From NCBI GenBank assembly GCA_010015585.1, contig ML975150.1: DNA of 64,000 nt; one strand, 5' to 3'. The position numbers and the translations under genes were made by a program. Origin of the DNA: Eremomyces bilateralis CBS 781.70. Lineage: Eukaryota. The notes under the pieces are model-generated. The model had not been told where the DNA came from. It searched no databases and saw nothing but the letters and a program-made list of their open reading frames with translations. This document shows positions 39,817-59,706 of the stretch, piece after piece (within the stretch, counting starts at the first letter, position 1; each line of letters opens with the position of its first letter).

Positions 39817-40486
39817 CTTGGTGAAAGTGATCGAGAAAGCTCGAGGACGGGAGAAGATCTTCGGACTCGGAGTGTATGGTACTTTGGGAACTGATGATCG
39901 GATAGAGACTCAGAGAATTGAAGGAGATGCCAATGACTTTACAGACAACAGACATCCGGCTCCACTAACCGCAGTATGCCGATATGACATGACAGAAGCA
40001 ATGGAAATTTAAGAAGCTGGTAGACTACCGGTTGAGAGTCCGATAGACGAGGTCATGCTAAAGTACTAACTTAACTAGTAAACTTACCTTAGCGGAGGGA
40101 ACAGGGGCATAGCACCAGTGTCGATACCGTGGTAGCACCGTAGTGTCGTTTCCCTGTATAGATCATCCACACGGAGTGGTTTTAGTGTCGTTCGTCACTC
40201 GTGTTAGTAGGAGTTACGGAGATCCTGGACATTATGGAGTATATATGCCGCAGTGTCAAGTTTTGACACCATGTCCTCGAAGACCTGTATCGTGCGAAGT
40301 TCACGTGCTAGTCGTCGTACGGTGTCAAATTCCTCGTCGTGTCAAGTGGCGGTCCGTGTCAAACGGTCCGCCGTGTCAATCTCTCTTCGGTATCAGGGAC
40401 GTCCCGTGTCTGCCTCATTCTCCGTATAGAGATCACATGACCTTGAAATTGCTCAATTCACCAGCTGTTACGGTTATTGTCTATAT

Positions 40487-43400
40487 CTAGGCTCCACTAT
40501 GTAGCCTCCATAGTAATCATCATCTTCTTCGTCTACTACTGTCGCCAATTGCAACACCAGCTAGCTCCTATCCACCGATCCACCTGCCCACGCCGCCAGA
40601 ATATCCCGTCGTCCATCACCGAATCGATCTAATCCTGCAACCTGTGTCCACCGCCTTGGGTGCGATGTAATGTTGATACTAGAGTCGTCTGGTCGGGCTG
40701 CAAGAAGGGAGCGTTGGTTTGAGACTAAGTGATGGGGATAGAACAAGATACCTGCACAGGTATCGATCGGTTCGGGGGAGCAGCGCTGTGATATGGAGCG
40801 ATCAGCTTGGGAATACTAGAAACGGGTACGGTGCTTACTTGTAGTGATTGTTTCGGTTAACTACCATAGAGCTGTGATGAGGGAGCGATCAGCTTAAGAG
40901 ATATAATAGAAGATGGGGACACTAACTCGTATGGACTGATTGACAGTAGGAACTATATTCGTGGAACGATCGGTTTAGTTAGTACCGGTATGATAATATG
41001 GGGAGGGAATAATTACATGTATCGTACCTCTTGGGAGTTATTAGAGCCATAGCAGTGCCTTCTTAACCCAGATATACTCGTCCGTCTCTTTCGAATTCGA
41101 TAAGGTGACGAATCTATTATCATCCTTCTTGATTAGAACAAAGTAGAGCTGATCCGTCGATGACAGGGAGGCCAAGGATAAACGGAGCCATTGCCTCGTT
41201 TTGACCATCTTCTGAAGGAACTATGCGCACCCGGCGGTAACCTATACCGAGTCGGTCGTCGACGATAGCTGTATCCGGGTTCGCACAGGGACCACCGATA
41301 ACGAAGAGACGCCGGACGCGATCGAATGTATGGATAAAGATATGGTCGATGCGAATGATAGACCTGCCAGTATCGACCACTCCTCGAGTCCTAATATAGA
41401 TAAAGTCTCCCAGCTTGAACGTAAAACGCTTCTCTTGCTTGGGGTCAGTGAACGAAAGCTTCTTACACCACTGGAAAGTGCTACCATAAAACTGGACAAT
41501 GTTAGGCAGGCCGTAGTCTGCGTAAGCGGTGATAAGAGCACGTAGGAAAACTGTATCCATATGCGTCCATCGGGTTGGAAGCCCAAGTTGCTCACGGCAA
41601 TGCTTCGCCTGGATACAACCGATAGCTGTTGGTCGCTCATGGGTATCGTCGGGGCGGACGCGGCAGTCATCATCGTCGTCGTCTATAGCTCTATCAAGGG
41701 CTATTAGCTCAGATCGAGGGAGAATTGAAGTAAATAGTGTCGGGAACTGGCGAAGGAGATCCTGAGTAGCTATAGTCAAGTTGCGGTAGGCCTCAGAATC
41801 GCTATAGGCGAAGGCGTTGAGTAGTAATAGTCGAATGGTTTACCGTAAGTCCTCCTGGATAAGGGTTCTCGCTCAACCTTTTGATGGTTCGTCTGGTAGA
41901 TGACCTTCTTAAAGAAGCGATGCTTGTCCTCGCCGACGAGGACGTTACAGTTGCTCGGCATAGCATACTCTTCTGCGAGTTGAGGATAATGAAGAGCAGT
42001 ATGCATGTTCGGCTTTTTGATGTCGCTTAGATATAGCACGGCCTTTGCTGCCGATTCCTTAGGGACGTCTACCGTATGCTCGACGCCGGGCCTAGGGCCT
42101 TGAGTACGCTGAGATTGGGTCGTCCCGGTTGGCTGAGATTCCCGAGAAAGCGATCGACGACGGCGGGGATTCTCTGTCAACGAATCAGCTGCTTGTTGGA
42201 GGAGAGATTGGAGCTGATTGCGGTGTCTTGAAACAATCTCGGTCATTCGTTGACGGTCAGCTGCATCGATGTGATCTCCCATCAGAACACAATTACTCTG
42301 CGCGGCGGCTGCGTAGCAGTTGATAATCACCTTAACCGGACTCTCTCCGGTTCTCCTCAACGACGCCAAGAAATATGGCTAGATATGAGTCTCCCGTAAC
42401 CAACAGCGTAATAGGACTGGGATTACTAGCGACCACCGGGCATGCTCAGACAAGGAGTAGCTCTTCAAGTGGCGAAGTGGGCCTTGGACATGCGGCCAAT
42501 TCGGGGGGAAGGGGAACGATCGGAGCGTTTCGGCGTAGCTCTGGCAGCCCTTCGTCGTAAGGATCGCATCGAGGAGGAGGCTATGCATCATCCGACTAAG
42601 TCCCAGATACTCTGAGTGAGCAGGATCTCCCGGTCTTGACATGATAAGATCGAGGGCAGGGGATATCTTTATAAGGGAAGGGGCAGCCAGGTTGAGACCC
42701 CATCTTGTAGCATACCTCTCCCGTGCGGCCTGCGTAATACAGGCGTTCATAACCTCGCGCATCGCGAGGGTTTGATGATGATATCGCCCGTTTCGGAACG
42801 TATCGTAGAAGAGGTCTCCGCGGGATTCGTTGTCTATGAAGCAATTGCGACAGCCAAGCTTTGCACGCTGAGACTTCATACCTGCATTTTCCTGCTGCTG
42901 TGGCATATCACCAAGGTATGCCATAGTAAACGCACAGAGGAGGACCTTCTCCCCTCCTTGAAGGGTGACTTCTTGCCCTCGGTCAAGCCGTTTCATAAAC
43001 GGCTCGAGGGCAGAGATAACGTCGTCGAAGTTGCTGCCATGGGGACCAAGCGTAATTGGGAAGACGTTCGCTCGACGAGCTCTCTCCTTAAAGGATAGTC
43101 CCGCAGGGATGATATACATCCCCATTAACGTTCGGTACGTTGTCCGGTATAGACCAAAGCCGTCAATGAATATATTTAGGGCGATTGAGACGGTACGCCC
43201 GACAGATGATACTCTGTATCAAATCCAGTAAGGTGGTCGCCTCCAAATTCGGCCAACTCTAGCTTGCCACGGAGGGGATTGCTAAGGCAGAGCGGAGTAA
43301 CAGTCGGTTGATAGATCTCGGAACCCTGATCGTCGTAGATACGCCGGATGAGGAGGCTCGGTCGAATTGTTAAAAGGCGAATACTTTCCCCTTCCCAGAT

Positions 43401-44719
43401 CGATCATCTCCAAAGTTGTAGTCTAGCTGGACGTCTGGGATATAGGAAATGATCTGACACTCGGAGACAAAGTAGTAGAAGTTCCATGAGAGGAGCCCCT
43501 CATAATCAAGGACCGGAGGATCTAGCTGTACCGTAATATCGGATTTCAAGAGCACTAGCTCGATCTCAATCACGATATGGCCTGTCTGACCGGATCTGAA
43601 ATCCCGTCCAACGCCGTAGACCCGGCCAGTATGTAGCTTCTGGTTCTCGGCGCCCTGGGAGCAGTGGCAGGGCGCTTCACCACAAATGAAAGTGACAAAG
43701 TCGGATGGAAAAATCGGCATCCCCGACTGGTAATGCGCGAATGCCCCAGACGTCGCGCGAATCGATGATGCCCAGGCGTGAGAATGCCATAGCTCAGAGG
43801 GCTCGTCGTGATACTCCGCCATTCCAGTATGGATCTTATCCATCAAATCAGAGCTAGCAATGTTGCAGAAGAGGGAGAAAGGATTGATAAAATAGAGGTC
43901 ATCCGTAAGCTTATCCAATGCCGCGTGATGCTGCTGCTCCCGGGCAACCTTCTCGGGAACCAGTGGAACTGGCTTCCTTCGGAGGTCCATTAGCGGAAGC
44001 TGGCCACGAACCTGACGTTTCAACGTTGAGAGGCCCGTAGGTAGGCTGCGAATTGCCCGAGGTAGATCGTTGCCGGCCATAGTCAGTGCTTCGAGTAAGG
44101 CGGTATATTGTGGGCGAGAAATCCCGGCATCGATACACCAGAGTCCGATAGCAAGATGGAAACCAGACTGGAACTCCGTACGGGGGTAGTCAAAGGGAAT
44201 AGACTTATCCTCGGGGATATCGGTAGCTTTGGGATTTCCCCCTGATGTCGTAACGGGTGAGGGTGCTTCCTCGGTCTCGTTGAAGGATTGAGTCGGGATG
44301 CTTTCGTACCTAACAGACTCGACCACGTCATCGTATTGATCGGCTTGTTGGAGCTCCTGGAGGTCAAGATCGATTGGTAGAGTTGCGGTCGTGGTAGGAG
44401 TATCGTCCTCCTCGGTATCGAGACGGGATACGATATCGCGTAGGTCAACAACACTCCCGCGTTCATCCGGCTAGTTGATGTCATGAAGCTGGAGGCCACC
44501 GATATCGTTGTCGTCACTCCCACTGTCGATATTAGCCCGCTTGCTGCTGCTTTCGACTGGGTTTGGATCCTGGTTGACGGCTGCCATACGGCGGATCCTA
44601 GAACGGCGGAATTGTTGGCGGTTCTGCCCCGATATCACGACTCGTGGAGCCATGAAACCGGTATCTGAAGCACCCTGAGCGTAGCAAATCGAGTCAGGGG
44701 GGATTAGGGGTTTGAACAT
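40487..44719 (-). pseudogene. CMC (EnSpm/Plavaka-like) transposase, disrupted
   Basis: ELWHSHAW, IFIDGFG, YLGDMPQQQENAG..GCRNC, DPAHSEYLG, GEDKHRFFK; stop at about 42380 and frameshifts near 43200 and 41865; ends approximate. Confidence 0.7.
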
Positions 44720-45321
44720 AAACGGAGTACTAATCCGAGAGAGAGTCCGGGAGACGATAAGACTTGAGGATAGTGGGTAGAAGGAAAATAGACTGAGTGA
44801 GTGCGCTTGAAAACGAGTAGGCGCCTACCCATGTGACTTCGATGGAGGAGTAAGACAGACTCGTATCAACCGTACGGTACGCTTCTATCACCTTGCCTCG
44901 ATTTCTCGCTCTTCCTCCCTCCCTCTCTCTTCTCCTCCTTCTTTACGCGATAACATCATCACCGTTTGTCCGTTTGTTCCTCTCTGGATCTAGGACATCA
45001 AGATCGGTCTCATCGGTTCAAAACCAGCACGGCAGTGCTCAGCTTCAACGCGAATTTCCCCGCAGAAAATGGCCACCCCGAGAGGGGGTCGTGGAAGGCG
45101 GCGTAGTACGAGGGGTAGGGATGAAGTCTCTATAGAGGTAGTTAAGGGCAAGAAATTAACTGCTTGGTTCCCTCCCAGTTTTATACTAACCTAGTGGTTA
45201 TACCTAGGGTCCCCGAGGACGCGGTATTGGACCAAGTGGCCTTAGCGCTTCTACTGGTTCCGGAACTTACACTCCAACTCTCAGCGGTTCTAGGAGAGGT
45301 CAGCAGGCTCGAACCGACCCG

Positions 45322-46545
45322 ATGCCGATAGAACCTCTCCTCCGGTTTTTCGGGACTACCGATAGCGGCGATACCGCTGTCGGTAGTCCCCTTCCCGGAA
45401 GTGTGGTTCATTCGGTCAGCCTCGACGATGATACCGAGCTTCCTGCGACCCCTGAGTCTCAGGGGTCGGCCGGTACGCCTCCTGTGAAGAGCTTCCTTAT
45501 CCTGATCTCGAAGGAAACTCGGATGAAGATGCGTTCCCGCCTCATCGATGGTGAGCGACTCGACCACGTCACCCGGGCTTCAGAGGCCGTAAGTGGATTC
45601 GTTCCGAAGGAGGAACTCAGCGAGTATATCCGTCGCCTCGACCGCGTCATCCGCTGGAATACCTTCTTGACGCACAGTAACATCAATGCCTATAACATGA
45701 TCGACTTCGTTACCGACGGAAAGGTTGCTGTAGATGCCTCCGAGTTTTGGATCCTTCGTACAAAGATCCTCGACAATGTCCGCACCTATAAGAACAAGAT
45801 GCTGGCACGCTTCGAGGTAGGCTTACTCTATTCTACTAGTCTAGATACTAACATTACCGTGAGATCCATATCAAGAGCCTTATCGAGATCGAACCCTGGA
45901 TCAAGAACATGAACGAGGATGGTCTCCGCAAGCGTCTAGAATCGAAGTTCAACGCCCAGAACTTCCTGTTCGTCTGGTACTACATGAAGGACTACATAGA
46001 CGTCGACAACTCTGCCCCTCTTGGGAAATGGTTTATGAAGAGTATATTACTTCCTAAAACCTCGCTTTCCCGCGACTTAGACTCACCAGTGTTGCTTCTA
46101 GATATGTACGTCAATATGGGCGTGTACGTCAAGTCCTGGATGGACGAGAACGAGAGTAAGGATATCCGGGAGCGGCTTCTTCAAGCCTATGACCTATGGG
46201 CCCTCAACGAAGCGTTCGATGACGTCGATAAGGGCGACTTTATGGAGTTGTCTCAGAAGTTCCGCAATGAGCGTAAGAAGAAGAAACGCGACTTTGCCAC
46301 TATCAACAAAAATGTTCATCGTTATAGGCGATCGTCCTGCGAAACAGTCTCCGCTTCGTTCTCGCCATGATGGAGATTCTGAGCCGGAGCAGGCCGCGAG
46401 CCTGACGTCGCGTAGTGGTGAGGACCCATTCGGTGACGACGGCATCAACCGGGCTAGCGGTACGGGAGATGGCGATACCGAGTCCCAGTTTGGTGGGGAT
46501 GCCACTCAGGACGATGAATACGAGTTCGCTTATCGAACCATTTGA
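45322..46545 (+). CDS. Second, divergently oriented ORF of the transposon, unknown function, multi-exon
   Basis: Consecutive coding-like ORFs 45322-45912, 45909-46370 and 46189-46545 inside the TIRs; basic RNERKKKKR segment and acidic tail. Confidence 0.55.
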
Positions 46546-47119
46546 CCGCCGACTCATCGCCCCTAAGGTGGGATAGTGCCGCCGAAGGTGAGGTCGTGTG
46601 TAAGGTCGGTCGTGGGTGAGGTCGTGGGTTAGGAACCGCCTGTTAACTAAGAAACGTCAGTCAGGTAGTCGAAAGCAGTATACCAAGCAACGCATGTGGA
46701 TTCCGTGACCGGTTTGATGCTATGGCCTATGGGAGATGCAGATGCAGGGAAATGTGGGGTGGGAAACGGGGGGGGAAATCCCCTGTGGGGGGCCCTGTGG
46801 GAGCCCCTCCCCTCCAGATACCGTGTCGACACAGTGTCAGAAACCTTCCCGTGTCAACAGTATTCCCGTGTCGATAATGCACCGTGTCGTAGAACATGAA
46901 CAGTGTATCTCCTGCGGCATTAGGAGTATCCGTGACGATAGAGTATTAAGATGGGTACGCTTCGCGGACCAATTACGAGAAGATATAGCTACTAAGAAAT
47001 ATATTGGCACTGTATCACCACAGCGGAACCCCCCACATGGAGTCGACACAGTTGCATTCCCCCTGTTCCCTCCGCTAAGGTAGTTACTACTAACTGCTAA
47101 GTAACCAAGTTACCAATAA

Positions 47120-48388
47120 CCAAGCCAAAAGTCTGCGCACAGACCCCTTACTTTGACAATCAATAACTTTACCAAAATGAGGTCTTTTGGCACAAAAATA
47201 AGTGATAATCGAGGGCCTAATAAGGAGCTATCAGTTGCTCAAAGAGCTGGGGTTGTTCAGGCTGCTGAAGATGGGAAACCAAAGACTGAAATCGCGCGCA
47301 ACTTTCGCGTCTCTCGAAGCGCGGTGTATGGGACCCTAGAGAGGTGGGAAGAACACCAAACCACCGTATCTTTACCCCGTAAAGGGAGTCCCCATAAGCT
47401 ATCACGCTCTGGCGAACGGCATATCGTTCAAATCGCGCGTCGATTTCCTGAAATGGAATATGGAGAGCTCCTCGCAGGTATTTCGTACCTCCGCGTTTCT
47501 AGGAAGACTATCTACCGAATCCTTAAGAAATATCACCTTACGAAATGGCGAGCGAAGAAGGGACCTTACCTAAAACCCTACCACGTAAAAGGCCGCCTCC
47601 GATTTGCCCACGAATTCCTTGAATTCGACTTCTTCAGGACCCACTCTACAGACGAGTGCTCGTATGAGAAGGGGACAGGCGGTAAGCAGGTATGGGTATG
47701 GCGCCTGTACCACGAAGCGTATGAGTCGCGAATGGTAGAGCCAAAGACGTCAGGGAAGGTGATTTCGTAGATGATTTGAGGCTTAATTTCGCGTGATGGG
47801 CGATCAGATCTGGTGATTATGGACCGCGACGAAACCTCCGCAAGACAGGGCTATTCCGCAAAATCCTACATCGCTGCATTAGAGGAGAGACTCCTCTCTA
47901 CGTACGAACCCGGAAATGTTGTTATCCAGGATAATGTAAAGATCTATACGGCTAAAATTACCTAAGAATGGCTGGAGACGCACGGTATCTGGGTCACCGA
48001 TTGGCCGGCCAATTCCCCAGATATTAACCCTATCGAGCATATATGGCATCTATTGAAAACCAAGGTCCTAGAGCTCCACCCTGAATTAAAGCCGATAGGC
48101 ACCTCAGAGGAGGCACGGGAGGCTATGAATGCGGCGTTAGAGGAGGTATAGTGGGCGATCCCTTAGGAGACGATCCGAGAGCTGATCGACTCAATTCCGC
48201 GACGTCTACAGGCGGTAATCAAGGCAAAAGGGTGGCATACGAAATATTAGATATTTCCCAATTAAGAAATCAAAAAAGTAGACTGAATTTGCATTTGTAT
48301 GTGTTTTGCAGCGTATCTAAAGATACGGTGTATAGCGATTAGATTTGGTGATTTTCGGGGGTGTGTGCAGACATTTGTCTACTTAGTG
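47120..48388 (+). mobile_element. Tc1/mariner (Tc1-type DDE) transposon relic with RIP-type stops
   Basis: ORF 47177-48250 with HTH, TDECS, QDN, SPDINPIEHIW, GWHTKY; internal TAG/TGA/TAA; imperfect TIRs at 47125-47147 and 48357-48388 followed by TA. Confidence 0.9.
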
Positions 48389-48533
48389 TACTCTATGATG
48401 TTGGTCACTAGAGTAACTATACGGGATAATTAACTTACCCTAGGAGTTCCGCGACGATCAACACAAATATCAAGGCTTGTAAACATTCCTAAGTAAGAGG
48501 CGACTAACCTTCACTTACAAGCCGTGATAGTAA

Positions 48534-49496
48534 CTATTGCTTGAAAAAATCATTCATGTCAACGTCTTTATCGAACACTCCCACAGCTGCAGAAGAGTTT
48601 CTTTGTGTTGTTACATCCCTGATCCGCAGGTTGACCTTTCCGACAACACTCTCAGGTAATCCTACCAAAGCTCTCGAATCGTCGGACGTTATGATGTTGG
48701 AAATATCATGGCCTGTCCGTTTGGAGCGCACTTGTGAGAAAAGAGCAGCAGAAGCCACCTGATCAGCCTCGAAGAGGCGTGACTGTTCTTCAACTTCCTG
48801 AATGGCTAGGGTTCGCTGTGCACCACCATCTTCTTCGTCGTCTAGCCCTTCCTGTAGCCCTTGCACACGCTTTTGTGCGTCACCTTGCTGCTTCTTGGTA
48901 AGATCTATATGCTCTTGGATCTTGGCCTCGAGAGCCTGCAACTGTGCCTTCAGTTTCTTGCGATCAGTCTCCGACGTTTGTTCGGAGCGGAGTTGAACGA
49001 TTCTTTCTAGAGAGTCAGCATACATCCGCGGAAGTGATATAAGATAGCTGACCTACAATTGGGTACTTGTGACGGCAAAATGGACCGTAGTCTGGCAAGA
49101 CTGGACCTGCATTCTGAACGTCCGGAATTTTTCTCTATTCCACACGCCGACTGAAAGGCGATCTCTAAGGGAGAGTTGTGTGCCGCCGGAATGTTTCGTC
49201 CATCGCTTTAAATTGTCCGTAAATTTGGCGCATGCCTGGCCGCAGTTGTTCACGGCTTCGACGACACCGGTCTTCTCCAGATCCACTTTGGCTGCGGTAT
49301 ACATTGCTGCGTCTGAAATGATGAGATCCTCCAGGGCGGCCAACGGGCGCTGCACACCCTCTAAGTTTGAAGCAATATCTTGTACTACATCTTTAGCCTC
49401 AGCAAGATTGTCAATGAAGTTATGAAGTTGGACGATGCTGGAGATAGCAAACGTCGTAATGCCTAGAGTGCTTGCAGTAATACTAAGAGGATCCAT
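48534..49496 (-). CDS. HeLo-like domain effector with C-terminal two-repeat HET-s-like amyloid motif
   Basis: MDPLSITASTLGITTFAISSI N-terminal helix; inferred intron 49003-49056; C-terminal HDISNIITSDDSRALVG and LRIRDVTTQRNSSAAVG followed by an aromatic FF tail. Confidence 0.8.
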
Positions 49497-49911
49497 GGGT
49501 TCTGGTTCGAGGACGTGAGAATTAATGAATGGAACCCGTATGAAATCAGAAGAATCGTAATAGAAGAACGGAGATGTTTCTCTGATAGATACCTACGGAT
49601 GGATGGATTTTCGTAAGCATAAAATGGACGAGGCTGTTGAGAAAGGCGAACGGGCTGTATTTCTGTTGGGACTGAAGGCTGCTGTTCAGATGAGGTGATG
49701 CTGCACGGCTCCAACAAATCATTGTGCATGGCTGAACGCTGCCGTTAAGCGAGCCAGACGAAGCATTTAATTAGAACCGCTTCGAATTGGGAATAACAGT
49801 TTTGTTGCTGGACATCCCATGCTGTCTTGATGCATCACAAATGATAATAGTGCTGATCCTCAAAGCACTAGTTAGCAAAGGCTTGTGTTATTATCGCCAC
49901 TGTGAAGCCGT

Positions 49912-52900
49912 ATGGCGGGCAGCACTCAACACATCAGCAGCGTGTCCATCGACAACCACTCCCAGGCTGCAGTGGGTACCTTCCAAGCACCAGTGTATAT
50001 AGGGAACAAAGAAAGCGAGTATTATAGCTGTACACTAGATGACGAGGCTAATCGGTCGTCTAGATCTGAACGATGCGCTCAATTCCCTCCCTATTGCTAA
50101 GGACGCGGCGTTCGACACCTATTACCGACATGAGCCGACCTGCCTTCCCAATACCCGCGTCGATCTCCTCAAAGATATATACAACTGGGCAGATGGAGAC
50201 AATTCGCCGACCATCTTCTGGCTGAGCGGTTTGGCCGGCACCGGCAAGTCCACAATCGCGCGAACGCTGGCTGCTAAGTACTTGGACACCGGCGGTATTG
50301 CAGCTAGCTTCTTCTTCTCAAGAAATGGTGGAGAAGGTGGATATTTACGTCATGGTGAAAGATTCGTTACAAGCATTGCAGTGCAGCTGGCCAGCAATGT
50401 ACCGCCTGCAAAACAGGCCATATGCGGTGCTATTTTTGCGCAGAGTAACATCGCCAGCCGGGCTCTCCGCGAACAATGGCGGCATCTCATTCATAGGCCA
50501 CTATCGGAGCTACCAGACAGAAACTGCCAGTCTCGATATATCCTTGTCGTTGACGCGCTTGATGAGTGCGAGAACGAGAACGACATCCAGACCATTTTAC
50601 AACTATTAGCGGAGACTCGGTCCTTAGAGACGGTCCAGCTTCGAGTGTTCCTAACCAGCCGGCGTGAGATTCCGATCCGGAACAGCTTCGTCCAGATCCC
50701 CGATGATGTGTACCAGGATGCTATCCTCCACGAAATATCGTCGTCGATTGTCGATCATGATATCCGAATTTTCTTGCGGCACGAGCTCGAACAAATTGCT
50801 CGTACGCACGGTCTCCCTGTTAGTTGGCCTGGCGACCAAGTCGTTGATCAACTAGTTGGCAGTTCATGTGGGCTATTCATCTGGGCGGCAACTACATGTC
50901 TCTTTATCAACGAAGCCAGAATGTATGCTCCAGATCGCCTATCTATAATCCTCAAGGCCGACTCTGCGGATGACTCGGCAGACGGGTTGTCTTCAGATAG
51001 CTCCACGACAGATGATAAGAATGACGATCCCGTAATGGCTCCACAACAGCACCTAGACAAACTCTACATCACAGTTCTCCGGAGTTCTGTCCAGAAATAC
51101 AAGAAGCCGGAAAGAAAGAAATGTCGCAAGCTACTAGGAACAACCATGGAGACCATTGCTGTCCTATCTTCACCTCTATCTACCCACTCATTAAGCAAAC
51201 TGCTTGACACTACGCAAGAAGGAATACACCAAATACTGAACGATCTTCATTCGATCGTGGACGTTCCAAAGAATTCGACTCATCCACTGCGTTTACATCA
51301 TCCATCATTCCGCGACTTCATCCTTAACCCAAAGCGATGTGAGGATTTAAAGTTTAGAATTGACAATAAGCAAGTGCATCGGACCCTTGCCATGCAATGC
51401 ATACAGCTTATGTCCAAAACTTTTAAACAGGACGACATATGCTGTATAGGCCATCCAGGTACGCTTATAACCCAAGTTAAACACAGCCAAATAGAACAAC
51501 ATCTTCCTCCTGAGATTCAATATGCTTGCCTCCACTGGATCCAACATCTCCAGAGGGGTGGGTCACAGCTTAAAGACACCGACCAAGTACATACGTTTTT
51601 GCAGAAGAATCTCCTTCGTTGGCTTGAGGCTCTCGGATGGATGAAGAATGTTTCTAAGGGGATTCATGCCATTGTTTCTTTGGAGTCTATGGCAGCGGTA
51701 AGCCAGGGTCAAATAAGATACGAATACTTGGCTAACTTACGCTTAGTCGCATAAATGTCTACGACTATTCGAGTTTGTTCATGATATAAAGCGATTCGTT
51801 TTATATAACCGGTCAGCGATCGAGCAAGCTCCTCTCCAGACATATTGTTCTGCACTTATATTTGCGCCAGAGGCGAGTATTGTACGGATACAGTTTAAGG
51901 GCAGCATGCCCCAATGGATGCGAAGATTACCAAAGGTAGATTATGATTGGAATGCGTTGCTGCAGACGCTCGAGGGCCATTCGGCGGGGGTCCACGCCGT
52001 GGCCTTCTCGCCGGACGGCAAGACGCTGGCGTCGGCATCGAACGACAAGACGGTCAAACTGTGGAACGCCGTGTCGGGCGCACTGCTGCAGACGCTCGAG
52101 GGCCATTCGACCGGGGCGATGGCCATGGCTTTCTCACCGGACGGCAAGACGCTGGCGTCGGCATCGTGGAACGGGATGGTCAAGCTGTGGGACGCCAGGT
52201 CGGGCGCTCTGCAGCAGACGCTCGAAAGCCACTCGAGCGGAGTCATGGCCATAGCCTTCTCGCAAGACGGCAAGACGCTGGCGTCGGCATACGGGGACGG
52301 GATGGCCAAGCTATGGGACGCCGAGTCGGGTGTGCTGCAGCAGACGCTCGAGCGCTATTCAATCCCAGACATAGCTCTGGTCTTCTCATGGGACAGTAAG
52401 ACGCTAGCGTCAGCATCATGGGACGGGACGGTTAAGCTATGGGACGCCAGGTCAGGCGCGTTGCTGCAGACGCTCGAGGACCATTCGAGCCAGGTTAATA
52501 CCGTGGCCTTCTCGCGAGACGGCAAGACGCTGGCGTCGGCATATGGGGACGGGACGATCAAGCTGTGGGACGCCGGGTTGGGTACGCTGCAGCAGACGAT
52601 CGAGGGCCATTCGAGCGGAGTCCCGGCTATAGACTTCTCGCGGAACGGCAAGACGCTGGCGTCGGCATCGGCGGATATGACTATCAAGCTGTGGGACGCC
52701 AGGTCGGGGGCGCTGCAGCAGACGCTCGAGGGCCATTCAAGCCTGGTCATGGCCGTGACCTTCTCACGGGACAGTAAGACGCTGGCGTCGGCATCGGTGG
52801 ATAGGACGATCAAGCTATGGGACACTGGGTCAGGCACACTGCAGCAGACGCTCAAGCGCCATTCGAGCCCGGTTAATACCGTGGCCTTCTCGCGAGACGG

Positions 52901-53897
52901 CAAGACGCTGGTGTCGGCATACGGGAACGGGACGATCAAGCTGTGGGACGCCGGGTCGGGCGTCGTGCAGCAGACGCTCGAGTGCTATTCGAGCCCGGTT
53001 AATACCGTGGCCTTCTCGCGGGACGGCAAGATGCTGGCGTCGGCATACGGGAACGGGACGATCAAGCTGTGGGACGCCGGGTCGGGCGCCGTGCAGCAGA
53101 CGCTCGAGTGCTATTCGAGCCCGGTTAATACCGTGGCCTTCTCGCGAGACGGCAAGACGCTGGTGTCGGCATACGGGAACGGGACGATCAAGCTATGGGA
53201 CGCCGGGTCAGGCGCGCTGCAGCAGACGCTCCAGGGCCATTCGAGCGTAGTTAAGGTTATAGCCTTCTCGCCGGACGGCAAGACGCTGGCATCGGCATCG
53301 AACGACAAGACGGTCAAACTGTGGAACACCGGGTCGGGCGTGCTGCTGCAGACGCTCGAGGGCCATTCGTTCGGGGTCGTGGCCGTGGCTTTCTCACCGG
53401 ACGGCAAGACGCTGGCGTCGGCACCGTGGGACAAGACGATCAAGCTATGGGACGTTGGATCGGGCGTGCTACAATTGATACTCGAGGGCCATTCCCACCG
53501 GGTTAACGCCGTGGTCTTCTCGCGGGACAGCAAGACGCTGGCGTCTGCATCGGCCGACAGGACGGTTAAACTGTGGGACGTCGGATCGGGCGCAGTGCTA
53601 CAGACACACGATGTTGGGAATATCTGCTACGATCTCTCTTTCTCCGATAACGGCACTTCTATCCAGACGGACCGTGGATCCTGGCCTATTTTATCGCCTT
53701 TCTCTGATGGTACAGGTGTGACCAGTCCACAATATCTATTTTCTATCTTTGTTCATGACCAATGGGTAAGTAGCCATACCGAGCGGATCCTTTGGCTTCC
53801 TTCCGAGTATCGGCCAAGCGCGATTGCTGTTTATGAGGGTATTGTTGCTTTCGGTTATATATCTGGAAGAGTTATAACCATGGAACTTGCTTTGTAG
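49912..53897 (+). CDS. NACHT-WD40 NLR (NWD/HET-E-like) with short N-terminal amyloid-like motif
   Basis: CLPNTRVDLL, P-loop GLAGTGKST, Walker B VVDALDEC, HHPSFRDF, APLQTYCSALIFAP, 13 WD40 repeats; inferred introns 50015-50063 and 51698-51746. Confidence 0.92.
51957..53605 (+). repeat. Tandem 126-nt (42-aa) WD40 repeats, 13 copies, high internal conservation
   Basis: Recurrent gcagacgctcgag...ttctc...acggcaagacgctggcgtcggcat...aagctgtgggac with 126-nt period. Confidence 0.93.
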
Positions 53898-54161
53898 TGT
53901 TCACCCAAGTTTTCTTGACCTCCTACCTACCTACCTCCTTTGTAAATAGTGTCTGTACCGCGTGAATAGCACGAGTATCAACAGCCAGGGAGTAATATTT
54001 GATTAGGAACCCAAAGGCTTTGAATGTCAGCAATGATGATTTTGAGTTGCTTGATTTGAGGGCTGAGTCTGTGGGAGGTGCTTACGAAGAAGTACATTGG
54101 TCGATTCTGTGAGCCAACTGTCCGAAGAGCATCTTGATTCTTTACAAAACACGCGCTAGCC

Positions 54162-55732
54162 AGAGTATCCAAATGGCTGGTGAGATTTTACATTCCGTTT
54201 TTGAGATTTCACATACGGCTGGTGAGATGTCTCCCTCCGTATTTGAGATTTCTCCCACGCGCTAGTAATTGTAGAAATTAATCGCTCAACTGGACCTAGT
54301 GCGCAATTTCCTTTATTTTCGCCTAAGGGACAACTTCAATTAGTTATCAATGTTCAATCTATTCCTTCTCTCACAGACCTCAGCATGGAGGATATCATCA
54401 TGGAGGATATCACCCCTCCTCCAGATGGTCTTCACGCGTCTTATGAAGAAGCCTACAATGCTCTCAAAATTCATGGTATGCAGCATGGTTACGGCTTCGT
54501 TCTCAAACGGAGCAAACCTTACGGTTCTGATATAAAGACGCGATATTACTATCAATGTGATCGATCCGGAAACTATCAGTCAAGAGCAAGGATTCTAAGC
54601 ACAAGTACACGCACAATAGGGTGTAATTTTAGGCTTGTCATATTCAAAAACAAAAATGACGACCAGTGGAAGCTAGAGGTGCTACACGAGTATCACAACC
54701 ACCCCCGATCACTTAACCCTAGTGCGCATAATGTCTATCGCAGGCGTACATCAGCACAGAAAGACATAATTGAATCAATGACACATGCCGGGGTACGGCC
54801 GATGCAGATAATGGCTGCTATTCAAAAGGAGGACTCGGAAACGCTAGTCTCTGCCACCGATATCCGCAGCGAGAGGAAGGCAATTAGAGAAAAGCACTTA
54901 GATGGGAGGAGTCCGATTGAGACATTACTAGATGACTTATCTACGCCGGAATGGGTCTTTTCTGTTAAGAAGGACGCGGATAATCACGTACAAGGTCTCT
55001 TCTTTGCCCACCAGAAGCAGATCGAGCTACTGCTTGCGAATCCCGATATCCTATTAATAGACTGTACGTACCGAACCAAGTACAAGCTCCCGCTGTTGCA
55101 CATACTCGGCTGTACCAATCTATAGACCTTCTTCTCTGCCGGGTTCTGCTTCCTCCACAGCGAGAAAGAAGTAGATTACCATTGGGCAATCTCAAACTTC
55201 CTCCTCAAGACAGGGACACCGCAGCCACGCGTGTATATTAGCGATCAAGAGGATGCGGCGAAACTAGCAGCTCGCACTCTGTTTCCAAGTGTTCTATAAC
55301 TCCTGTGCGTATGGCATATCAACAAGAATGTGCAGACAAAGGCTCAAAAGACCTGGCGAGACGCTGATGGCGTGACAAAAGAGGAGAAGGGGAGAATCGC
55401 TGAGAAACGGGCTCAATTCATGAAACGTTGGAGTCAAGTATGCTCCCCGCTAATGGCCTCTTATAAGTCTTTTATAGAACTAACTAGAGCAGCTTGTCTA
55501 CGCAAAAGGACTACTTATATGTAAGCTGAAGTGGGACGAGTTACTCAAAGACTATGCTGACCAGCAAGAGCTTTGCCAATACTTACGCAAAATCAATGGC
55601 ATACACGCACTAAGTGGGCAGCTGCTTGGACGTCTCGGCATCGACATTACAATACAATTACCACTTCTCCTGTTGAAGGAATGCACAAGGTTTTAAAAGA
55701 CTACCTTATGACTTCAACAGGCGACTTCCTAT
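54162..55732 (+). mobile_element. Mutator-like (MULE) transposon, 3'-truncated, RIP-type stops
   Basis: FAR1-like YYQCDRSG...GCNFRL..HNHP; DCTYRTKYKLPLL; ISDQE; LCVWHINKN; TTSPVEGMH; in-frame TAG/TAA; 42-bp tandem unit at 54175-54257. Confidence 0.88.
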
Positions 55733-55739
55733 GTCGGGA

Positions 55740-56290
55740 TTGACGCGTCCGTAGTATCATCGGCAACGCGTTGTAGCCACATCTCCTATGCTGTCCGAAT
55801 CGCCTCCGCTATGAAGTAGCTGTCAATCTTGGAGGCAGTCTCGTCGTATATGGCGGCGCCGGCAGAGTAGAAAAGGTCCTCTATTGAAAGTGGAACCTTG
55901 CGGTGCAGCATCGACTTCCTCAATCCACCTGGGGGAATGTCGGCGCCTCTGAAAACTTTCTCCGTTGTCATAGAGCGCATTTCTGCATGGTTTAAGACAA
56001 CATAGGCATCCAGCAGCTGGCCGTATCGACGGACCGTCCCCCACATACGGTCAGTCGATGTCCATTCCGAGAGCCGGTGAGGATGTCTTTGTTTGTTCTA
56101 CCACAGTTTCGAGATGCCTGTGGACCCCCCTGTAGCCTTCACAAATCCTAAACTGGTGAAGAAGATCGAGGACACGCCGTTTAACGCCATTGGAGTGTAG
56201 AAAGGCACCAAATATGCGGGGAAACTTGTTGCTTCCTTCCGAGGCTCGAGAATAACAGAAAAATAAACTACAGTACATCTATATCCGTTG
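55740..56290 (-). pseudogene. Fragment of a DUF6589-like (transposon-associated) protein
   Basis: GAFLHSNGVKRRVLDLLHQFRICEGY and GLRKSML..PLSIEDL..SYFIAEAIR resemble fungal DUF6589-type proteins; abuts the MULE truncation. Confidence 0.5.
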
Positions 56291-56294
56291 ACCC

Positions 56295-57740
56295 TCAAGT
56301 CTGGCCGAGCTTTTGCAATCGAGTGATGAATCTCTCTAACCGTTCCCAAAGTGCTTCATTCTCTCCTGAATATTTTGCCCATGTCAAATCATCATATACT
56401 TTCCAAAAAGTCTCACTTTGTGATATTTGATCGCGAATTTCGCTTCTAGTGCGTCTGATATGTTTTGCCACTTCAAACGGTAGGCGGTGGTATTGATCCT
56501 CTGGTGCCAGAGTAAATCGAGATCTGATCTGATAAATCCGATCAAGGGAAATCTGAATCCGAGAAATGTCGTCCAAAGTAAGCTTTGCTTGCTGAAATGT
56601 TTCGTATATGATAGCCTCATTCTCAACCAGTAAAGCGGAGACACATGTAGGTAAAATATGCGGTTCAATCTCGGGAAGGATGCGCTTGTACATTGGCAAG
56701 TGGTGTAGCTCTTGAAGTAACATGCACTCAACCTGTAGACCATGGGGTTAGAGCTTACATATCGTTAGGTATATGATCCGCACCTTTTGGCAATACTCAA
56801 CTGGCCCACAGCTTCCAAGCAGCTGTTTAGATTCCGTCAAATAAAGGTCCCTTTTATTATCTAGTAGCTTCCTCTGCAAATTCGCTCGATATGGTAAAAT
56901 CCAAACCAAATCATTTGTCGCGTCCTGAAAAGGTTTGAGTGATTCCGCAAATCGCTCCAGCCAAGACCCAGAGGAAGTAAGAGGTAGACCATCTGCCGTC
57001 TCGTCGCCCTTGTGAGTGAGACCCTCTCTCGAGGCCGTCAGAGGCATTCCTGCGGCCAATGTTGGGTCATCGACCTGAGACTTACAGGCAGCTTGCACGA
57101 CTTGGAAGAAAAGGTCGGCTATGCCTCGTTTTTCATCGAGGAAAGTCGATGTCCAGACAAAAAGCAGGAGCTTTTCATAACCTAACGGATATTCGACAGG
57201 ATGTTTATATTCCTCTTCATATTGAAAGAAGCTTCTCTGTTCCCTTTTGACCCAGTGCCTATCCACGTATCGGAAGCTCTAAGATATACGTTTGGCGACA
57301 AGTTGGTATCGGTACCACTCACGGGTGTAAAATTCCAGGTTTTCTGGCCAGTTCAAATGTTTCACAGCGGCACACACTTCAGCTAGCTGTTGCTTGAAAT
57401 GATCCTCAAGACAGTAGTACAGCAGTTCTGTGGTCCAATTCACGATGTCCCCACGGAAGGTATGAAGGTATCGCGCTGGTGATAATTTGATGTAATCAGT
57501 TTCCGTGATTTCTATATGGCTTATTTGTGCAATTGAGGGTCGAACACCTACGTCTCAGACGGGTGCAATAGGAATACACCGCACAGCTAGAGCATTAGAA
57601 TTAGCATCTGCATAGAATCCACAGTGTGAAAATGGGTTCCCACATACTACGCTTCCATGTAATTATGAATATCCTCTGGCTCCCTGTCCCTGCTCCACAT
57701 GGCCTTGATGAGCACAGAAAACACAGTCCTCGACTCAACC
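56295..57740 (-). pseudogene. Divergent cullin (Cul1/Cdc53-like) N-terminal repeat region, truncated with internal stop
   Basis: Manual translation gives YMEA..AVYSYCT, LLYYCLEDHF, EFYTREWYRYQLVAKRIS*SFRYVDRHWVKRE, YLTESKQLL...VEYCQKV, TCVSALL...IIYETFQ in cullin order. Confidence 0.7.
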
Positions 57741-57894
57741 GCGAGATTTTCTCTATCTAAGCTTAGAAATCAATTTAGAGTGTAATACAGAATAACTTAC
57801 GCTGGTTCGAGAGCGGATGAGGTATTCTCACAACCTAAATTGTATCAATGTCCAACCTTCAACCACCCCTCTTCACTTCTCCGTCCTCCCCTCC

Positions 57895-58900
57895 TCACTG
57901 TGACTGATCGTCAAACGTTTCCTCCTCCGTATGAATAATCGTCGATTCTGGTTCCTTTGCGAGAGTATTTGTTGGCCCTGCAGCGTATGATCTCACACAC
58001 TTTGCACCATTTGGGGTTATAAATCGTCGATCAATACGGAGTAAGACATAAAGCCAAACCACCATAATCTCTACGCCGAAATTGACGATGTAAAATGCTG
58101 CTTTGTGGTAGTAAGCGGGCAATGGCTGGGTCCGCGGTACTGGGTTTATGTACGACGTTCCTGCATGGTACCACGCACCAAAAGCGAGCAGCGTGGTCGT
58201 CGAAAGCAGCACGAAAATCTTCGTCCGAAACCTGCCCGAGCCGAATTTCTCAACTCTGGTCTTCTTCTGCAATACCACCCCGATCAACACTATCGGCAGC
58301 GGGAGCGTTGCCACAAACCCTAGGTATGTCGCCGCGTATAGCTGGATGTCGCGAGCGATCCGCTTCGTATTCGGGTTCAGTGTGTAGAACGTCATCACCG
58401 TCACGGTGATGGTCATGACGAGCGTGGCCCCAACCAACACGTAGAGGCCGATCAATAAGGCCGAGAAGACGCGATGCCAGCCGAAGTGCGGGTGCTGGGC
58501 GCGGATAATATGCCATGCGAAGATGAGATTGATGATGAACAGCAGCAGCACGCCGGCGAGTACTAAGATCTGGGCGGCGATGGCGGTTGAGATGTTGCGT
58601 GGCCAGGTGATGCTCACGATGCGGAGGACAAGGGTCGTGATTCTGGCCATGCAGAAGCCTGGGGATTATATTAACAAACAGGAATCGTTCTGATTGTTGC
58701 GCTGCAATTGCGTACCAAAGAGGAGGGCGGAGAAGATGAATTTATGGCCTCTTCTTCTATTTTTCTGGAAGATGGTCATGTGTGCGGCGGCACCGGCGAC
58801 AAACAAGGCACAACAAGGCTAGGAACACAGCTGAGATGGGGATATCAGTGCTGGCCGTGGCTAGTCCCCCTAACATCCATACCTGGGGAAGATAGAGAGG
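57895..58900 (-). pseudogene. DUF3112-like multi-pass membrane protein, probable frameshift
   Basis: HMTIFQKNRRRGHKFIFSALLFGFCMARI, AAQILVLAGVLLLFIINL, RAQHPHFGWH, EKFGSG; local duplication near 58800-58820 shifts the frame. Confidence 0.65.
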
Positions 58901-59706
58901 TCCTTGTTGGGCCTGAAGATCCGATGGATTAGCTGGTTGAGGTACGCAAAGAGCATTTGGATGGCCATACCTGAGGATTTAGTTGCTGCAACATCTCTTC
59001 CTTAGAGGGAAAAGTTATCAGATTTGTTGCGAAGTCAGGTTCGTGATGAGCTCAAAAGTTGGCTGTTTGTTACTAGGAGCCTTTGGAGGCTTGCGAATAT
59101 CATGAAGAACGTCTCGTCCCCATGACAGTAGGGCTGAACCATCATATATATATGTACATGATGATACGAACGTCGAATTCGTACGTACAAGTAGAGTAGG
59201 TGATACCATTGCATATCTGTGAAATTCTGCTCGCTGAAGCAACTCCAATCGAAATATGGTTGAATGGCATCGGCGTGTCGTAGGGTTTGTCCGGAACAGA
59301 GATATCATTCTAATGCCAGACAGCGATCTATTGCCTCCACCGTTTCACTCCGCAAGTTTTGGGTATTACATTTGCTCACTCATAGTCTCATACGTAAGTC
59401 TTTGTCATTGACTCGAGCGGAGAGGCATTAAACTTCTTATTACCGTATATCGGCAACTCGGCATCTGGCACACCCGGCGATCACCATGTCGGCCATGCTG
59501 TGTCGCCGACAAGTGTTGCTAAATGAACACGTCTCGTCGACTCTCCGTTCATGTCGCTGACGAGCAAATGTGAGGCCCTCGATGATGGACTGGCCATAGG
59601 AAAGTAGGTGACTCACCCTCCCAAACTTTAGAGACTGTAAGAGCAGGCCTGTCCTAGGCGCTGGGAGCCAATAGAGGGATTCTGCTGGGGTTCAAAAAGC
59701 TCAAAG

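Follow-up and report, generated by a model that had tools for sequence, protein, structure and literature searches.

Pairs of fungal genes that encode an NLR and an effector with HET-s-related motifs are already well described, and as a discovery one more such pair brings little that is new. The classes HRAM1 to HRAM5 were defined by the 2015 data set of Daskalov, Dyrka and Saupe (PMC4518210). According to this work, the whole superfamily is characterised by glycine as residue 19 and by hydrophobic side chains at 5, 8, 10, 16 and 18, threonine also being allowed at 10, and arginine or lysine at position 15 is a preference, not a rule. A loop of 6-18 residues was found in 154 of 155 sequences, and a neighbouring NLR bearing the corresponding r0 motif was reported for 98 of 155 effectors (PMC4518210). 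The occurrence of HRAMs on HeLo-like domains, beside an NLR with r0, is described in the same paper and in the HELLF work. The mark of HRAM2 is Gln at position 3, a position for which in-register co-variation was also demonstrated (PMC4518210), and in a 2017 review this class is exemplified by the Penicillium roqueforti pair W6Q0M1/W6PZN6. The HELLF preprint attributes control of cross-seeding to class-specific residues, including the Gln-bearing QxFG sub-motif. Signalling specificity apart from that of HET-s has been proposed in the literature for the classes other than HRAM1.

We analysed a stretch of 64,000 nucleotides from Eremomyces bilateralis CBS 781.70 (contig ML975150.1), called here the window, in which a first-pass annotation had pointed to a possible new HRAM subclass. 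Our main conclusion, to which we assign a probability of about 85%, is that the amyloid region in question belongs to the defined HRAM2 class, and that it is carried by a HeLo-like effector encoded beside a NACHT-WD40 NLR with an r0 motif.

The effector gene and its divergent NLR neighbour

Gene structures were compared with contigs of two DNA-like sequencing runs and of a third run, X3. No run was recorded as RNA and this nature of X3 is only guessed; we term it RNA-like because it contains a spliced joint that is lacking in both DNA-like runs.

The effector is encoded on the minus strand by two exons. Exon 1 (49057..49496, start codon at 49496-49494) encodes the N-terminal part of the HeLo-like (HELL) domain, and exon 2 (48534..49002, stop codon at 48534-48536) encodes the end of this domain, a helical linker and the amyloid region. 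The intron between them (49003..49056) is 54 nt long, has GT..AG ends and contains a CTGAC branch-like site. Contigs of X3 ending at 49002 and 49057 run on into the letters of the other exon, and the junction formed in this way is that of the deposited protein P0001 (302 aa), to which the joined exons translate exactly. In a Pfam search PF17111 spanned aa 1-198 of P0001, and exon 1 alone matched this family with an E-value of 5.5e-18. The domain ends at aa 198 (base 48849) and the linker occupies aa 199-242 (48717-48848, minus strand), with AlphaFold2 predicting helices at aa 158-198 and 206-243. The HeLo-like domain proposed in the first-pass annotation is supported by the PF17111 match, while the coiled-coil spacer that was to follow it lies mostly inside PF17111, with only the helix 206-243 in between. 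The size of the effector is under the HRAM limit of 310 aa, and both repeats are placed inside the last 80 residues. Directly downstream of the effector gene, at 47120-48250, there is a Tc1/mariner remnant with in-frame stops.

The adjacent receptor, a feature of HRAM systems, is present in the form of a NACHT-WD40 gene on the opposite strand, from whose start codon that of the effector is separated by about 415 bp (49497..49911) in a divergent arrangement; in this inter-gene region X3 gave no cover in bins 49616-49807. Exon 1 of the NLR (49912..50014, plus strand, ATG at 49912) encodes an N-terminus that reads MAGSTQHISSVSIDNHSQAAVGTF..., in which r0, STQHISSVSIDNHSQAAVGTF, corresponds to aa 4-24 (49921-49983). 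It is followed by an intron of 49 nt (50015..50063) with non-canonical GC..AG ends, whose joint, 50014>50064, was found in one X3 contig (side 156) and in neither DNA-like run, and fits the junction of the deposited protein P0031, where GNKE is followed by NLND. Exon 2 (50064..51697) encodes a NACHT-type NTPase module, recognised as NPHP3_N at 1.1e-28; the NACHT family itself reached 9.3e-06 and 26.0 bits, just below its Pfam cut-off of 26.7. The second intron (51698..51746, 49 nt, GTAAGC...CTAAC...TAG) was read from the sequence and is needed for an exact P0031 translation. Exon 3, with the stop codon (51747..53897), encodes the WD40 array (PF00400, 3.5e-151, 13 stretches), which consists of 13 tandem units of 126 bp (42 aa) at 51954-53593 and for which Tandem Repeats Finder gave a period of 126, 13.0 copies and 79% matches. 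The joined exons, all on the plus strand, translate exactly to P0031 (1295 aa). Spliced forms of both genes of the pair are thus represented in the RNA-like run, and both coding sequences are intact.

Among the best 25 of the 64 Pfam families matching full-length P0031 there was no N-terminal motif family. A search with NLR residues 1-60 recovered, from 21 candidates, the query alone; as the method depends on 5-residue words in common, this result is weak evidence on a second receptor with this r0. Beyond the NLR gene, a FAR1/MULE-like remnant is located at 54247-55125.

The repeats, their class and their predicted structure

The C-terminus of the effector, encoded on the minus strand at 48534-48730, reads ...QVRSKRTGHDISNIITSDDSRALVGLPESVVGKVNLRIRDVTTQRNSSAAVGVFDKDVDMNDFFKQ and is followed by the stop codon. 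Under the published 21-aa numbering, with Gly as position 19 (PMC4518210), this region is divided into r1 (aa 243-263, TGHDISNIITSDDSRALVGLP, 48654..48716), the inter-repeat loop ESVVGK (48636..48653), r2 (aa 270-290, VNLRIRDVTTQRNSSAAVGVF, 48573..48635) and an aromatic C-terminal tail of 12 aa, DKDVDMNDFFKQ (48537..48572), in which a short helix is predicted at aa 296-299. The repeat length and hydrophobic spacing of HET-s, noticed in the first-pass annotation, were recovered here as two 21-aa HET-s-type repeats with the same spacing and Gly19. The segment LPESVVGKVN, which had been delimited between cores of 17 aa, is present as well and in the 21-aa numbering becomes the loop ESVVGK, whose 6 aa correspond to the lower end of the published range; the tail DMNDFFKQ is found at the C-terminus, as had been described. 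Similar tails occur in rows of the Q3 type in the 2015 data set, for example KGLDINAFFKD and DKSVDMRDFFKKTL (PMC4518210).

All three copies of the motif conform to the superfamily pattern, the residues at positions 5, 8, 10, 16, 18 and 19 being I, I, T, A, V and G in r1, I, V, T, A, V and G in r2, and I, V, I, A, V and G in r0. Among 28 aligned homologues Gly19, Ser14, Ile5, Ala16 and Val18 show no variation or almost none, and when 55 representative clusters were considered, Gly19 was retained in 51 of them in r1 and in 49 in r2. Position 15 is occupied by Arg in r1, Ser in r2 and Gln in r0, and the preferred Arg/Lys is thus confined to r1, a point that counts against the assignment; in the homologues, r1 has R/K at this position in 23 of 28 cases and r2 mostly A/V. 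As judged from the sequences, the repeat pattern is not a product of chance.

With respect to HRAM1, no match to PF11558 was obtained for P0001 in Pfam at E<=10, and no HET-s chain appeared at E<=10 in the PDB sequence search. The HRAM1 asparagines at positions 3 and 20 are absent, position 3 being H, L and Q and position 20 being L, V and T in r1, r2 and r0, respectively. The first-pass annotation was accordingly right in stating that the motif is not canonical HET-s, and the residues it listed two positions before the first hydrophobic one (Q/H/L) and after the glycine (T/L/V) are those seen in r0/r1/r2. HRAM3 is characterised by His3 in both repeats, and here His is found only in r1; rows of the HRAM3 type in table S2 (e.g. 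SGHTF...VRYGDE) share 4 of 21 positions with r1 by hand count. Gln at position 16 or 18, which distinguishes HRAM4 and HRAM5, is replaced by Ala16 and Val18 in all three copies; HRAM4 and HRAM5 are not numbered alike in the 2015 paper (PMC4518210) and in the HELLF papers. P0001 gave no Pfam match to PF17046 (sigma), and the PP pattern NxGxQxGxN is also absent from it.

The same xSVVGK loop and repeats are, in turn, carried by seven rows of table S2 (PMC4518210), four of which are identical to homologues P0005, P0018, P0020 and P0025. Comparison with P0005 (Capronia epimyces A1O3_09761) showed 18/21 common positions in r1, 6/6 in the loop and 15/21 in r2, while for P0018 the values were 15/21 in r1 and 11/21 in r2; the loop is also identical in P0020 and P0010. 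Table 1 of the same paper credits Cochliobolus sativus and Westerdykella ornata each with a single protein of HRAM2 and a single one of HRAM3. As the entry outside the xSVVGK group is, in either species, of the His3, GD/GN-type form, the xSVVGK group is HRAM2. This label is a deduction from Table 1, since table S2 has no class column, and our assignment relies on shared positions together with Table 1, as opposed to the clustering on JTT distance with a PAM110 cut-off by which HRAM2 was delimited (PMC4518210). Gln3 is typical of HRAM2 and not obligatory, because one member that the paper counts in the group, W. ornata 504224, has His in r1.

Thus, the motif is an ordinary member of a described class and not a new class. 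The proposal of a new subclass does not survive the presence of seven relatives in the founding data set. A strong match to a defined class with the same effector architecture had been named in advance as the result that would speak against novelty, and P0005, with its HeLo-like domain and adjacent NLR, is such a match. E. bilateralis itself was not found in the available part of the 2015 tables (PMC4518210), and neither the species name, the locus-tag prefix nor a 10-residue r0 string occurred in 11 supplementary files of a 2022 survey.

The structural predictions point in the same direction. When the 81-aa C-terminus was modelled by AlphaFold2 with 79 aligned sequences, pLDDT over the repeats was 84-93, and the same strand pattern was predicted in r1 and r2, at positions 3-10 and 15-21. 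VIA gave Z of at least 2 for three of the 31 chains ranked by Foldseek, all of them HRAM amyloid structures: HELLF 6eka (Z 5.3, a value that the tool does not yet regard as safe, with rmsd 4.8 and 51/53 residues aligned), HET-s 2lbu (Z 3.0) and HET-s 2rnm (Z 2.8). These matches are weak, with Foldseek E-values of 1.1 and 2.5 and TM-scores <=0.37. The family profile aligned to the HELLF prion domain in a colinear and ungapped manner (E 0.069, PDB sequence search). The best-scoring row of that search, LRRTM (5a5c, E 0.0041), was rejected as a leucine-rich-repeat artefact of the LP..V..K.. periodicity, in which no single stretch passed the threshold. Prediction of a complex between effector aa 236-302 and NLR aa 1-40 yielded scores of 0.23 and 0.19, short of the 0.34 mark, and was counted neither way. 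The model of the full-length effector had no Foldseek match at E<=0.001, only generic helical bundles, and its best VIA Z of 9.1 is below the noise level of the tool for helical proteins. HeLo and MLKL structures were absent from the matches of this model, which says nothing either way.

It could be argued that the strands at the C-terminus simply belong to the normal beta fold of a soluble protein and that their likeness to the N-terminus of the NLR is incidental; indeed, AlphaFold2 sets these strands with fair confidence in a monomer. We regard this as highly improbable, as the published HRAM pattern is common to r0, r1 and r2, the arrangement of three copies over adjacent genes recurs in most of the effectors counted in the 2015 paper (see above), and the sole structural matches with Z of at least 2 are two solved HRAM amyloids, HELLF and HET-s.

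Very probably, the two genes make up an NLR/effector unit for amyloid signalling that is comparable in kind to NWD2/HET-S and FNT1/HELLF. By analogy with these systems, recognition of a ligand by the WD40 array would lead to oligomerisation of the NACHT module, and the oligomer would gather r0 segments into an amyloid-like nucleus. On such a nucleus, r1 and r2 of the effector would be converted into a beta-solenoid of two rungs, and the HeLo-like domain, a cell-death domain of the membrane-targeting kind, would be freed in this way and be expected to attack the membrane and cause cell death.

Position 3 of the repeats and the paralogue

An unusual feature of the effector, and one that counts against its HRAM2 assignment, is found at position 3, which is His245 in r1 (codon CAT, 48708-48710), Leu272 in r2 (codon CTG, 48627-48629) and Gln6 in r0 of the adjacent NLR. 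Gln3 is present in r1 of 26 and in r2 of 25 of the 28 homologues, and paralogue P0002 of the same species, with the locus tag P152DRAFT_515351, has it in both repeats. The H/L pair was seen in no other sequence among the 28 homologues and the 55 representative clusters. Contigs of the two DNA-like runs and of the RNA-like run span the repeat region and agree with it letter for letter, which excludes assembly error as the source of the His and Leu codons. The changes are not of the RIP type either, because both are transversions (CAR to CAT and CAG to CTG); RIP as their cause was rejected, and 1-kb composition indices did not reveal a strong signature of RIP across the two genes. The H/L replacements are variation within the family and not the mark of a new class.

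One explanation of this pattern would involve a nascent change of seeding specificity. After duplication of the effector, Gln3 would have been replaced (Q>H in r1 and Q>L in r2), and seeding by P0001 would have been shifted away from that of the Q/Q paralogue, towards a state with a hydrophobic residue at position 3, with r0 of the receptor keeping Gln. P0001 and P0002 differ at 4 of 42 repeat positions (r2 alone shares 19/21), and position 3 of the two repeats accounts for two of these four differences, an outcome whose probability by chance, C(40,2)/C(42,4), is ~0.007 in a post hoc hand calculation. Moreover, position 3 co-varies between the repeats, with Q/Q in 36 of the 55 representative clusters, a hydrophobic pair in 14 and a mixed pair in 5, in keeping with the published in-register co-variation and the role ascribed to QxFG in cross-seeding. 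If this explanation were true, the effector would sit between two stable states of the wider family, one with polar Q/Q at this position and one with two hydrophobic residues, and the E. bilateralis paralogues would offer a natural system in which the effect of a single in-register position on the barrier to cross-seeding could be measured. However, since r0 of the adjacent NLR is still Gln, receptor and effector are mismatched at position 3; moreover, His in r1 fits neither of the common states. Similar single changes are sporadic elsewhere, H/Q in P0020 and Q/L in both P0010 and P0153. We therefore consider it unlikely that P0001 records a step of this kind.

It is somewhat less likely still that P0001 is a drifting copy, in which constraint on an effector located amid transposon remains was relaxed, the loss of Gln in both repeats marks incipient decay, and function is maintained by the canonical paralogue. 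The Tc1/mariner and FAR1/MULE-like remnants do flank the pair, and a paralogue with the consensus motif does exist. On the other hand, neither reading frame is disrupted, the RNA-like run contains spliced forms of the two genes, and the other conserved positions of the repeats, Ile5, Ser14, Ala16, Val18 and Gly19, are all kept. The repeats also diverge less from those of the paralogue than does the HeLo-like domain, in which 23 of 198 positions differ. Membership of HRAM2, with variation at position 3 inside the family, remains the reading that we prefer.

Comparison with known systems

The pair described here adds an HRAM2 system from a poorly studied lineage of Dothideomycetes, in which both gene models fit the RNA-like contigs, including the GC-AG intron of the receptor. 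A literature search at the level of titles and abstract openings returned no experiment on the HRAM2 class and no HRAM2 structure; the H/L effector and the Q/Q paralogue of the same species constitute a natural mutant pair for position 3 and seeding specificity.

The HELLP/PNT1 system (PP motif) and sigma-motif systems resemble this locus in that a HeLo-like effector and an NLR share an amyloid motif. The PP motif, however, is a single pseudo-palindrome, NxGxQxGxN, and sigma corresponds to PF17046, neither of which is present in the E. bilateralis effector. HET-S/NWD2 of Podospora anserina is similar in the placement of r0 on a NACHT-WD40 NLR beside a two-repeat effector, in hydrophobic spacing and in Gly19. 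HET-S (HRAM1, PF11558; 2rnm, 2kj3) differs in its canonical HeLo domain, in Asn at positions 3 and 20 and in a loop of 15 aa; it has no sequence match to our effector at E<=10 and only a weak structural one (Z 2.8-3.0).

HELLF/FNT1 of P. anserina is closer, with a HeLo-like effector, two repeats 6 residues apart and Gln3 in the family consensus, and HELLF (6eka, solid-state NMR) was the best real match both by sequence and by predicted structure. It belongs, however, to a different class (HRAM5), and its QxFG and QG sub-motifs contrast with xDIS / xRIR and VG here; its receptor partner carries another repeat type, not WD40, according to the HELLF preprint.

The closest known systems are the HRAM2 pairs of HeLo-like effectors and NLRs (PMC4518210). 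In these, as in the E. bilateralis pair, the effector is ~300 aa long and has two 21-aa repeats separated by an xSVVGK loop of 6 aa and followed by an aromatic tail, and the gene beside it encodes an NLR with r0. The r0 of P. roqueforti, in table S2, and the r0 described here share TQHIS.V by eye. The E. bilateralis pair departs from the others at position 3, where only r0 has kept Gln and the effector carries His (r1) and Leu (r2).

Effector gene, NLR partner and surroundings

The stretch at 48534-48730 on the minus strand is the 3' end of a two-exon effector gene, composed of exon 1 (49496 to 49057), a GT..AG intron of 54 nt (49056 to 49003), exon 2 (49002 to 48537) and the stop codon (48536-48534). 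When cut by coordinates, the joined exons translate letter for letter to the deposited 302-aa protein P0001 (source label: hypothetical protein, Eremomyces bilateralis CBS 781.70), and the C-terminal sequence read in the first-pass annotation agrees exactly with this minus-strand translation. Residues 1-198 match Pfam PF17111 (formerly Helo_like_N, at present PigL_N; E 1.9e-20). In the AlphaFold2 model of the full-length protein (28 sequences, mean pLDDT 83.2, pTM 0.74), long helices are predicted at 158-198 and 206-243. Since PF17111 extends to residue 198, most of the previously described coiled-coil spacer falls within the HeLo-like domain; only the predicted helix 206-243 links the Pfam model to the first repeat, r1.

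The partner NLR gene lies on the plus strand, its start (ATG 49912) being 415 bp from the effector gene. Its exons (49912-50014, 50064-51697 and 51747-53894) are separated by two 49-nt introns, a non-canonical GC..AG one at 50015-50063 and another at 51698-51746, and when joined they translate exactly to the deposited 1295-aa protein P0031. This protein bears a NACHT-type NTPase module (NPHP3_N, 1.1e-28) and 13 WD40 repeats, for which tandem 126-bp units (79% matches) at 51954-53593 (plus strand) code. In fungal NLRs, recognition domains typically contain internal repeats of high mutual similarity. The tandem array also has the highest G+C content (0.63) among the 1-kb bins examined in 40000-60000. 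Residues 4-24 of P0031, STQHISSVSIDNHSQAAVGTF, constitute a third motif copy, r0. Three related motif copies are distributed over an adjacent, divergent gene pair, both members of which have intact reading frames.

Contigs from three public runs were compared with 48400-50300. In X3, a run whose RNA status is only a guess, one contig contained the NLR joint 50014>50064, with 156 letters on the shorter side, and contigs ending at 49002 and at 49057 continued into the sequence of the effector's other exon; the NLR joint was absent from both DNA-like runs. The joint and the exon-crossing contigs indicate spliced transcripts of both genes in X3, and therefore support both gene models. Intergenic bins 49616-49807 had no cover in X3, whose contigs cannot tell transcript levels or ends. 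A canonical GT..AG alternative for the first NLR intron (about 49993-50038, drawn from sequence) was rejected, the observed joint being the GC..AG form. The repeat region was covered by all three runs with no differing letters, which excludes an assembly error; as the runs may stem from the assembled strain, they do not represent independent strains. Contigs of the DNA-like runs over 48598-49050 were short and fragmented, and in both of these runs a 72-letter contig had C for A at 49013, within the effector intron. This may reflect cross-talk, in the assembly graph, from the gene of the paralogous protein P0002.

Remnants of mobile elements surround the pair. Immediately 3' of the effector gene is a Tc1/mariner transposase remnant (47120-48250, plus strand; HTH_Tnp_Tc3_2 4.5e-13, DDE_3 3.4e-07), whose single frame is interrupted by several in-frame stop codons. 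Just past the NLR gene, an open frame at 54247-55125 (plus strand) weakly matches FAR1 DNA-binding (8.7e-05, below cut-off) and ZSWIM RNaseH-like families and is probably what remains of a MULE-type transposase. Several long open frames in succession, at 41120-44470 (minus strand) and 45208-46370 (plus strand), match no Pfam family at E<=0.001; these too may be degenerate genes of mobile elements. The hydrophobic 256-aa frame at 57895-58665 (minus strand; DUF3112, 1.8e-11) probably encodes a membrane protein unrelated to the gene pair.

Assignment of the motif to HRAM2

The HRAM classes were defined by Daskalov, Dyrka and Saupe (Sci Rep 2015; PMC4518210), in whose numbering a 21-aa repeat has Gly at 19, hydrophobic residues at 5, 8, 10, 16 and 18 (Thr being allowed at 10) and a preference for Arg or Lys at 15; the loop between repeats is 6-18 residues long in 154 of 155 proteins. 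The classes are marked by Asn (HRAM1), Gln (HRAM2) or His (HRAM3) at position 3, or by Gln at position 18 (HRAM4) or 16 (HRAM5). In this frame, the effector C-terminus reads r1 (aa 243-263, TGHDISNIITSDDSRALVGLP), loop ESVVGK, r2 (aa 270-290, VNLRIRDVTTQRNSSAAVGVF) and tail DKDVDMNDFFKQ. The required Gly and hydrophobic positions are present in r0, r1 and r2, and Arg at position 15 in r1 only. The 10-aa loop reported earlier exists as a stretch, but its length resulted from the use of 17-aa cores; the published frame gives 6 aa, the minimum of the known range. No Pfam match was obtained for the C-terminus, the HET-s prion-domain model PF11558 giving no hit at E<=10, as could be expected since it matches only 38 of the 155 HRAM proteins (PMC4518210).

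A search with exon 2 yielded 30 proteins among 1246 candidates (273-2000 residues), and 28 of them were aligned; P0028 and P0029, with 59-68% query coverage and carrying the sigma-motif family PF17046, were dropped. The motif is conserved in these relatives. Seven rows of table S2 in PMC4518210 share the xSVVGK loop and the repeats with the effector, namely Capronia epimyces, Amniculicola lignicola, Cochliobolus carbonum, C. heterostrophus, C. sativus, Karstenula rhodostoma and Westerdykella ornata. Four of these are our homologues P0005, P0018, P0025 and P0020, identical across the last 80 residues, and P0001 shares with P0005 (C. epimyces) 18/21 positions in r1, 6/6 in the loop and 15/21 in r2. 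As table S2 has no class column, the HRAM2 label was deduced from Table 1 of the same paper, which credits both C. sativus and W. ornata with a single protein in HRAM2 and a single one in HRAM3. Both species have two rows in table S2, and the other row is of the His3, GD/GN type; the xSVVGK group is therefore the HRAM2 entry. This deduction fits the text of the 2015 paper (Gln at position 3) and the HRAM2 exemplar of a 2017 review (PMC5485727), Penicillium roqueforti W6Q0M1/W6PZN6, whose row in table S2 has Gln at 3, r0 ITQHISGV... and tail KGLDINAFFKD.

The first-pass annotation had suggested a separate HRAM subclass, a proposal which by its own terms would give way to a strong match with a defined class of the same architecture. 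Such a match was found: the xSVVGK rows belong to HRAM2, and an effector with an adjacent NLR is an already known architecture. Judged by its sequence, the motif is thus a new member of a defined class. Among the papers listed for the term HRAM2, those on fungi (PMC4518210, PMC5485727 and a 2022 survey, PMC9815663) show no experiment on this class in their titles or abstract openings, and in 11 of the survey's 13 supplementary files the species name, the locus-tag prefix and a 10-residue r0 string were all absent. The numbering of HRAM4 and HRAM5 apparently differs among papers: a Podospora protein is HRAM4, defined by Gln18, in the text and Table 1 of PMC4518210, and HRAM5 in PMC5485727 and 10.1101/2020.07.06.188508. 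Another E. bilateralis NLR, P0050 (1519 aa, different contig), begins with MSGNNQHISGLSASDHSQLFAGQA..., a second HRAM2-like r0 in this species, of the ...FAG type.

Variation at position 3

P0001 carries His at position 3 of r1 and Leu at position 3 of r2. In the alignment of 28 homologues, this position of r1 is occupied by Gln in 26 proteins and by His in two (P0001 and P0020 of W. ornata); in r2 it is Gln in 25, Leu in two (P0001 and Monosporascus P0010) and Trp in P0030, which is truncated and badly aligned there. The His/Leu pair occurs in no other sequence examined. Searched exhaustively by HMMER with the 81-aa C-terminus as query, a set of 1.84 billion representatives yielded 59 proteins at E<=0.001 (28 at E<=1e-10), and the pair was readable in 55 of 60 aligned rows, which are representative clusters (P0151-P0209). 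Q/Q was found in 36, hydrophobic residues in both repeats in 14 (I/L 4, V/L 3, L/A 3, and A/L, V/A, I/A and L/L once each) and mixed pairs in five (R/Q 2; Q/L, Q/C and Q/E once each). There are thus two common states, with the repeats changing together, and in-register co-variation at this position is reported in PMC4518210. The hydrophobic forms (e.g. SG[IV]DIG... / VNLRVGEVTTQGG...) seem to form a coherent sub-group, and the H/L pair sits between the two states. Because all other conserved positions are kept, we read it as variation inside a known family and not as a new class.

The paralogue P0002, encoded on a different contig, has Gln at position 3 of both repeats. Of its 38 differences from P0001 over 302 positions, 23 lie in the HeLo-like domain (198 positions), eight in the linker (44), two in each repeat (21 each), one in the loop (6) and two in the tail (12). 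Position 3 accounts for two of the four changes within the repeats, and both of these (codons CAT and CTG) are single transversions, hence not RIP-type. Relative to this Q/Q paralogue, the changes might represent a nascent shift of specificity, as class-specific residues, including a sub-motif with this Gln, govern cross-seeding (10.1101/2020.07.06.188508); however, r0 of the linked receptor retains Gln, and single changes of like kind are scattered through the family. Alternatively, they might mark early decay within a transposon-rich stretch, but neither gene is disrupted, spliced forms occur, and conservation is higher in the repeats than in the remaining protein.

Predicted fold and possible mechanism

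The AlphaFold2 model of the 81-aa C-terminus (79 aligned sequences; the fragmentary or divergent P0028-P0030, P0188, P0199-P0203 and P0209 omitted) had a mean pLDDT of 79.4, with 84-93 across residues 21-70, and strands were predicted at positions 3-10 and 15-21, alike in r1 and r2. Foldseek found nothing at E<=0.001 among 350,542 PDB chains, its top two rows being the amyloids of HET-s (2rnm; E 1.1, TM 0.24) and HELLF (6eka; E 2.5, TM 0.29/0.37). When 31 ranked chains were aligned with VIA-align, only three reached Z>=2, each an HRAM amyloid: 6eka (Z 5.3, rmsd 4.8, 51/53 residues aligned, 28% identity), 2lbu (Z 3.0) and 2rnm (Z 2.8). In PDB sequence searches, the family profile aligned with the HELLF prion domain colinearly and without gaps (E 0.069), as did the single sequence (E 1.1), and neither retrieved a HET-s chain at E<=10. 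A globular non-solenoid fold, the other alternative named in the first-pass annotation, is weakly contradicted by the repeat-wise strands and by the HRAM-amyloid matches; these weak structure and sequence signals speak against it, even though a monomer prediction cannot show amyloid.

By analogy, the gene pair most likely operates through amyloid-triggered cell death, as in NWD2/HET-S and FNT1/HELLF. A ligand would be bound by the WD40 array, leading to oligomerisation of the NACHT module and stacking of r0 segments into an amyloid-like seed. On this seed, the effector's r1 and r2 would then be templated to fold as a two-rung beta-solenoid, and the freed HeLo-like domain would act on the membrane and cause cell death. 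On the weak signals described, HELLF appears to be the nearest solved relative, and HELLF of Podospora likewise combines a HeLo-like domain and an HRAM prion domain (10.1101/2020.07.06.188508).
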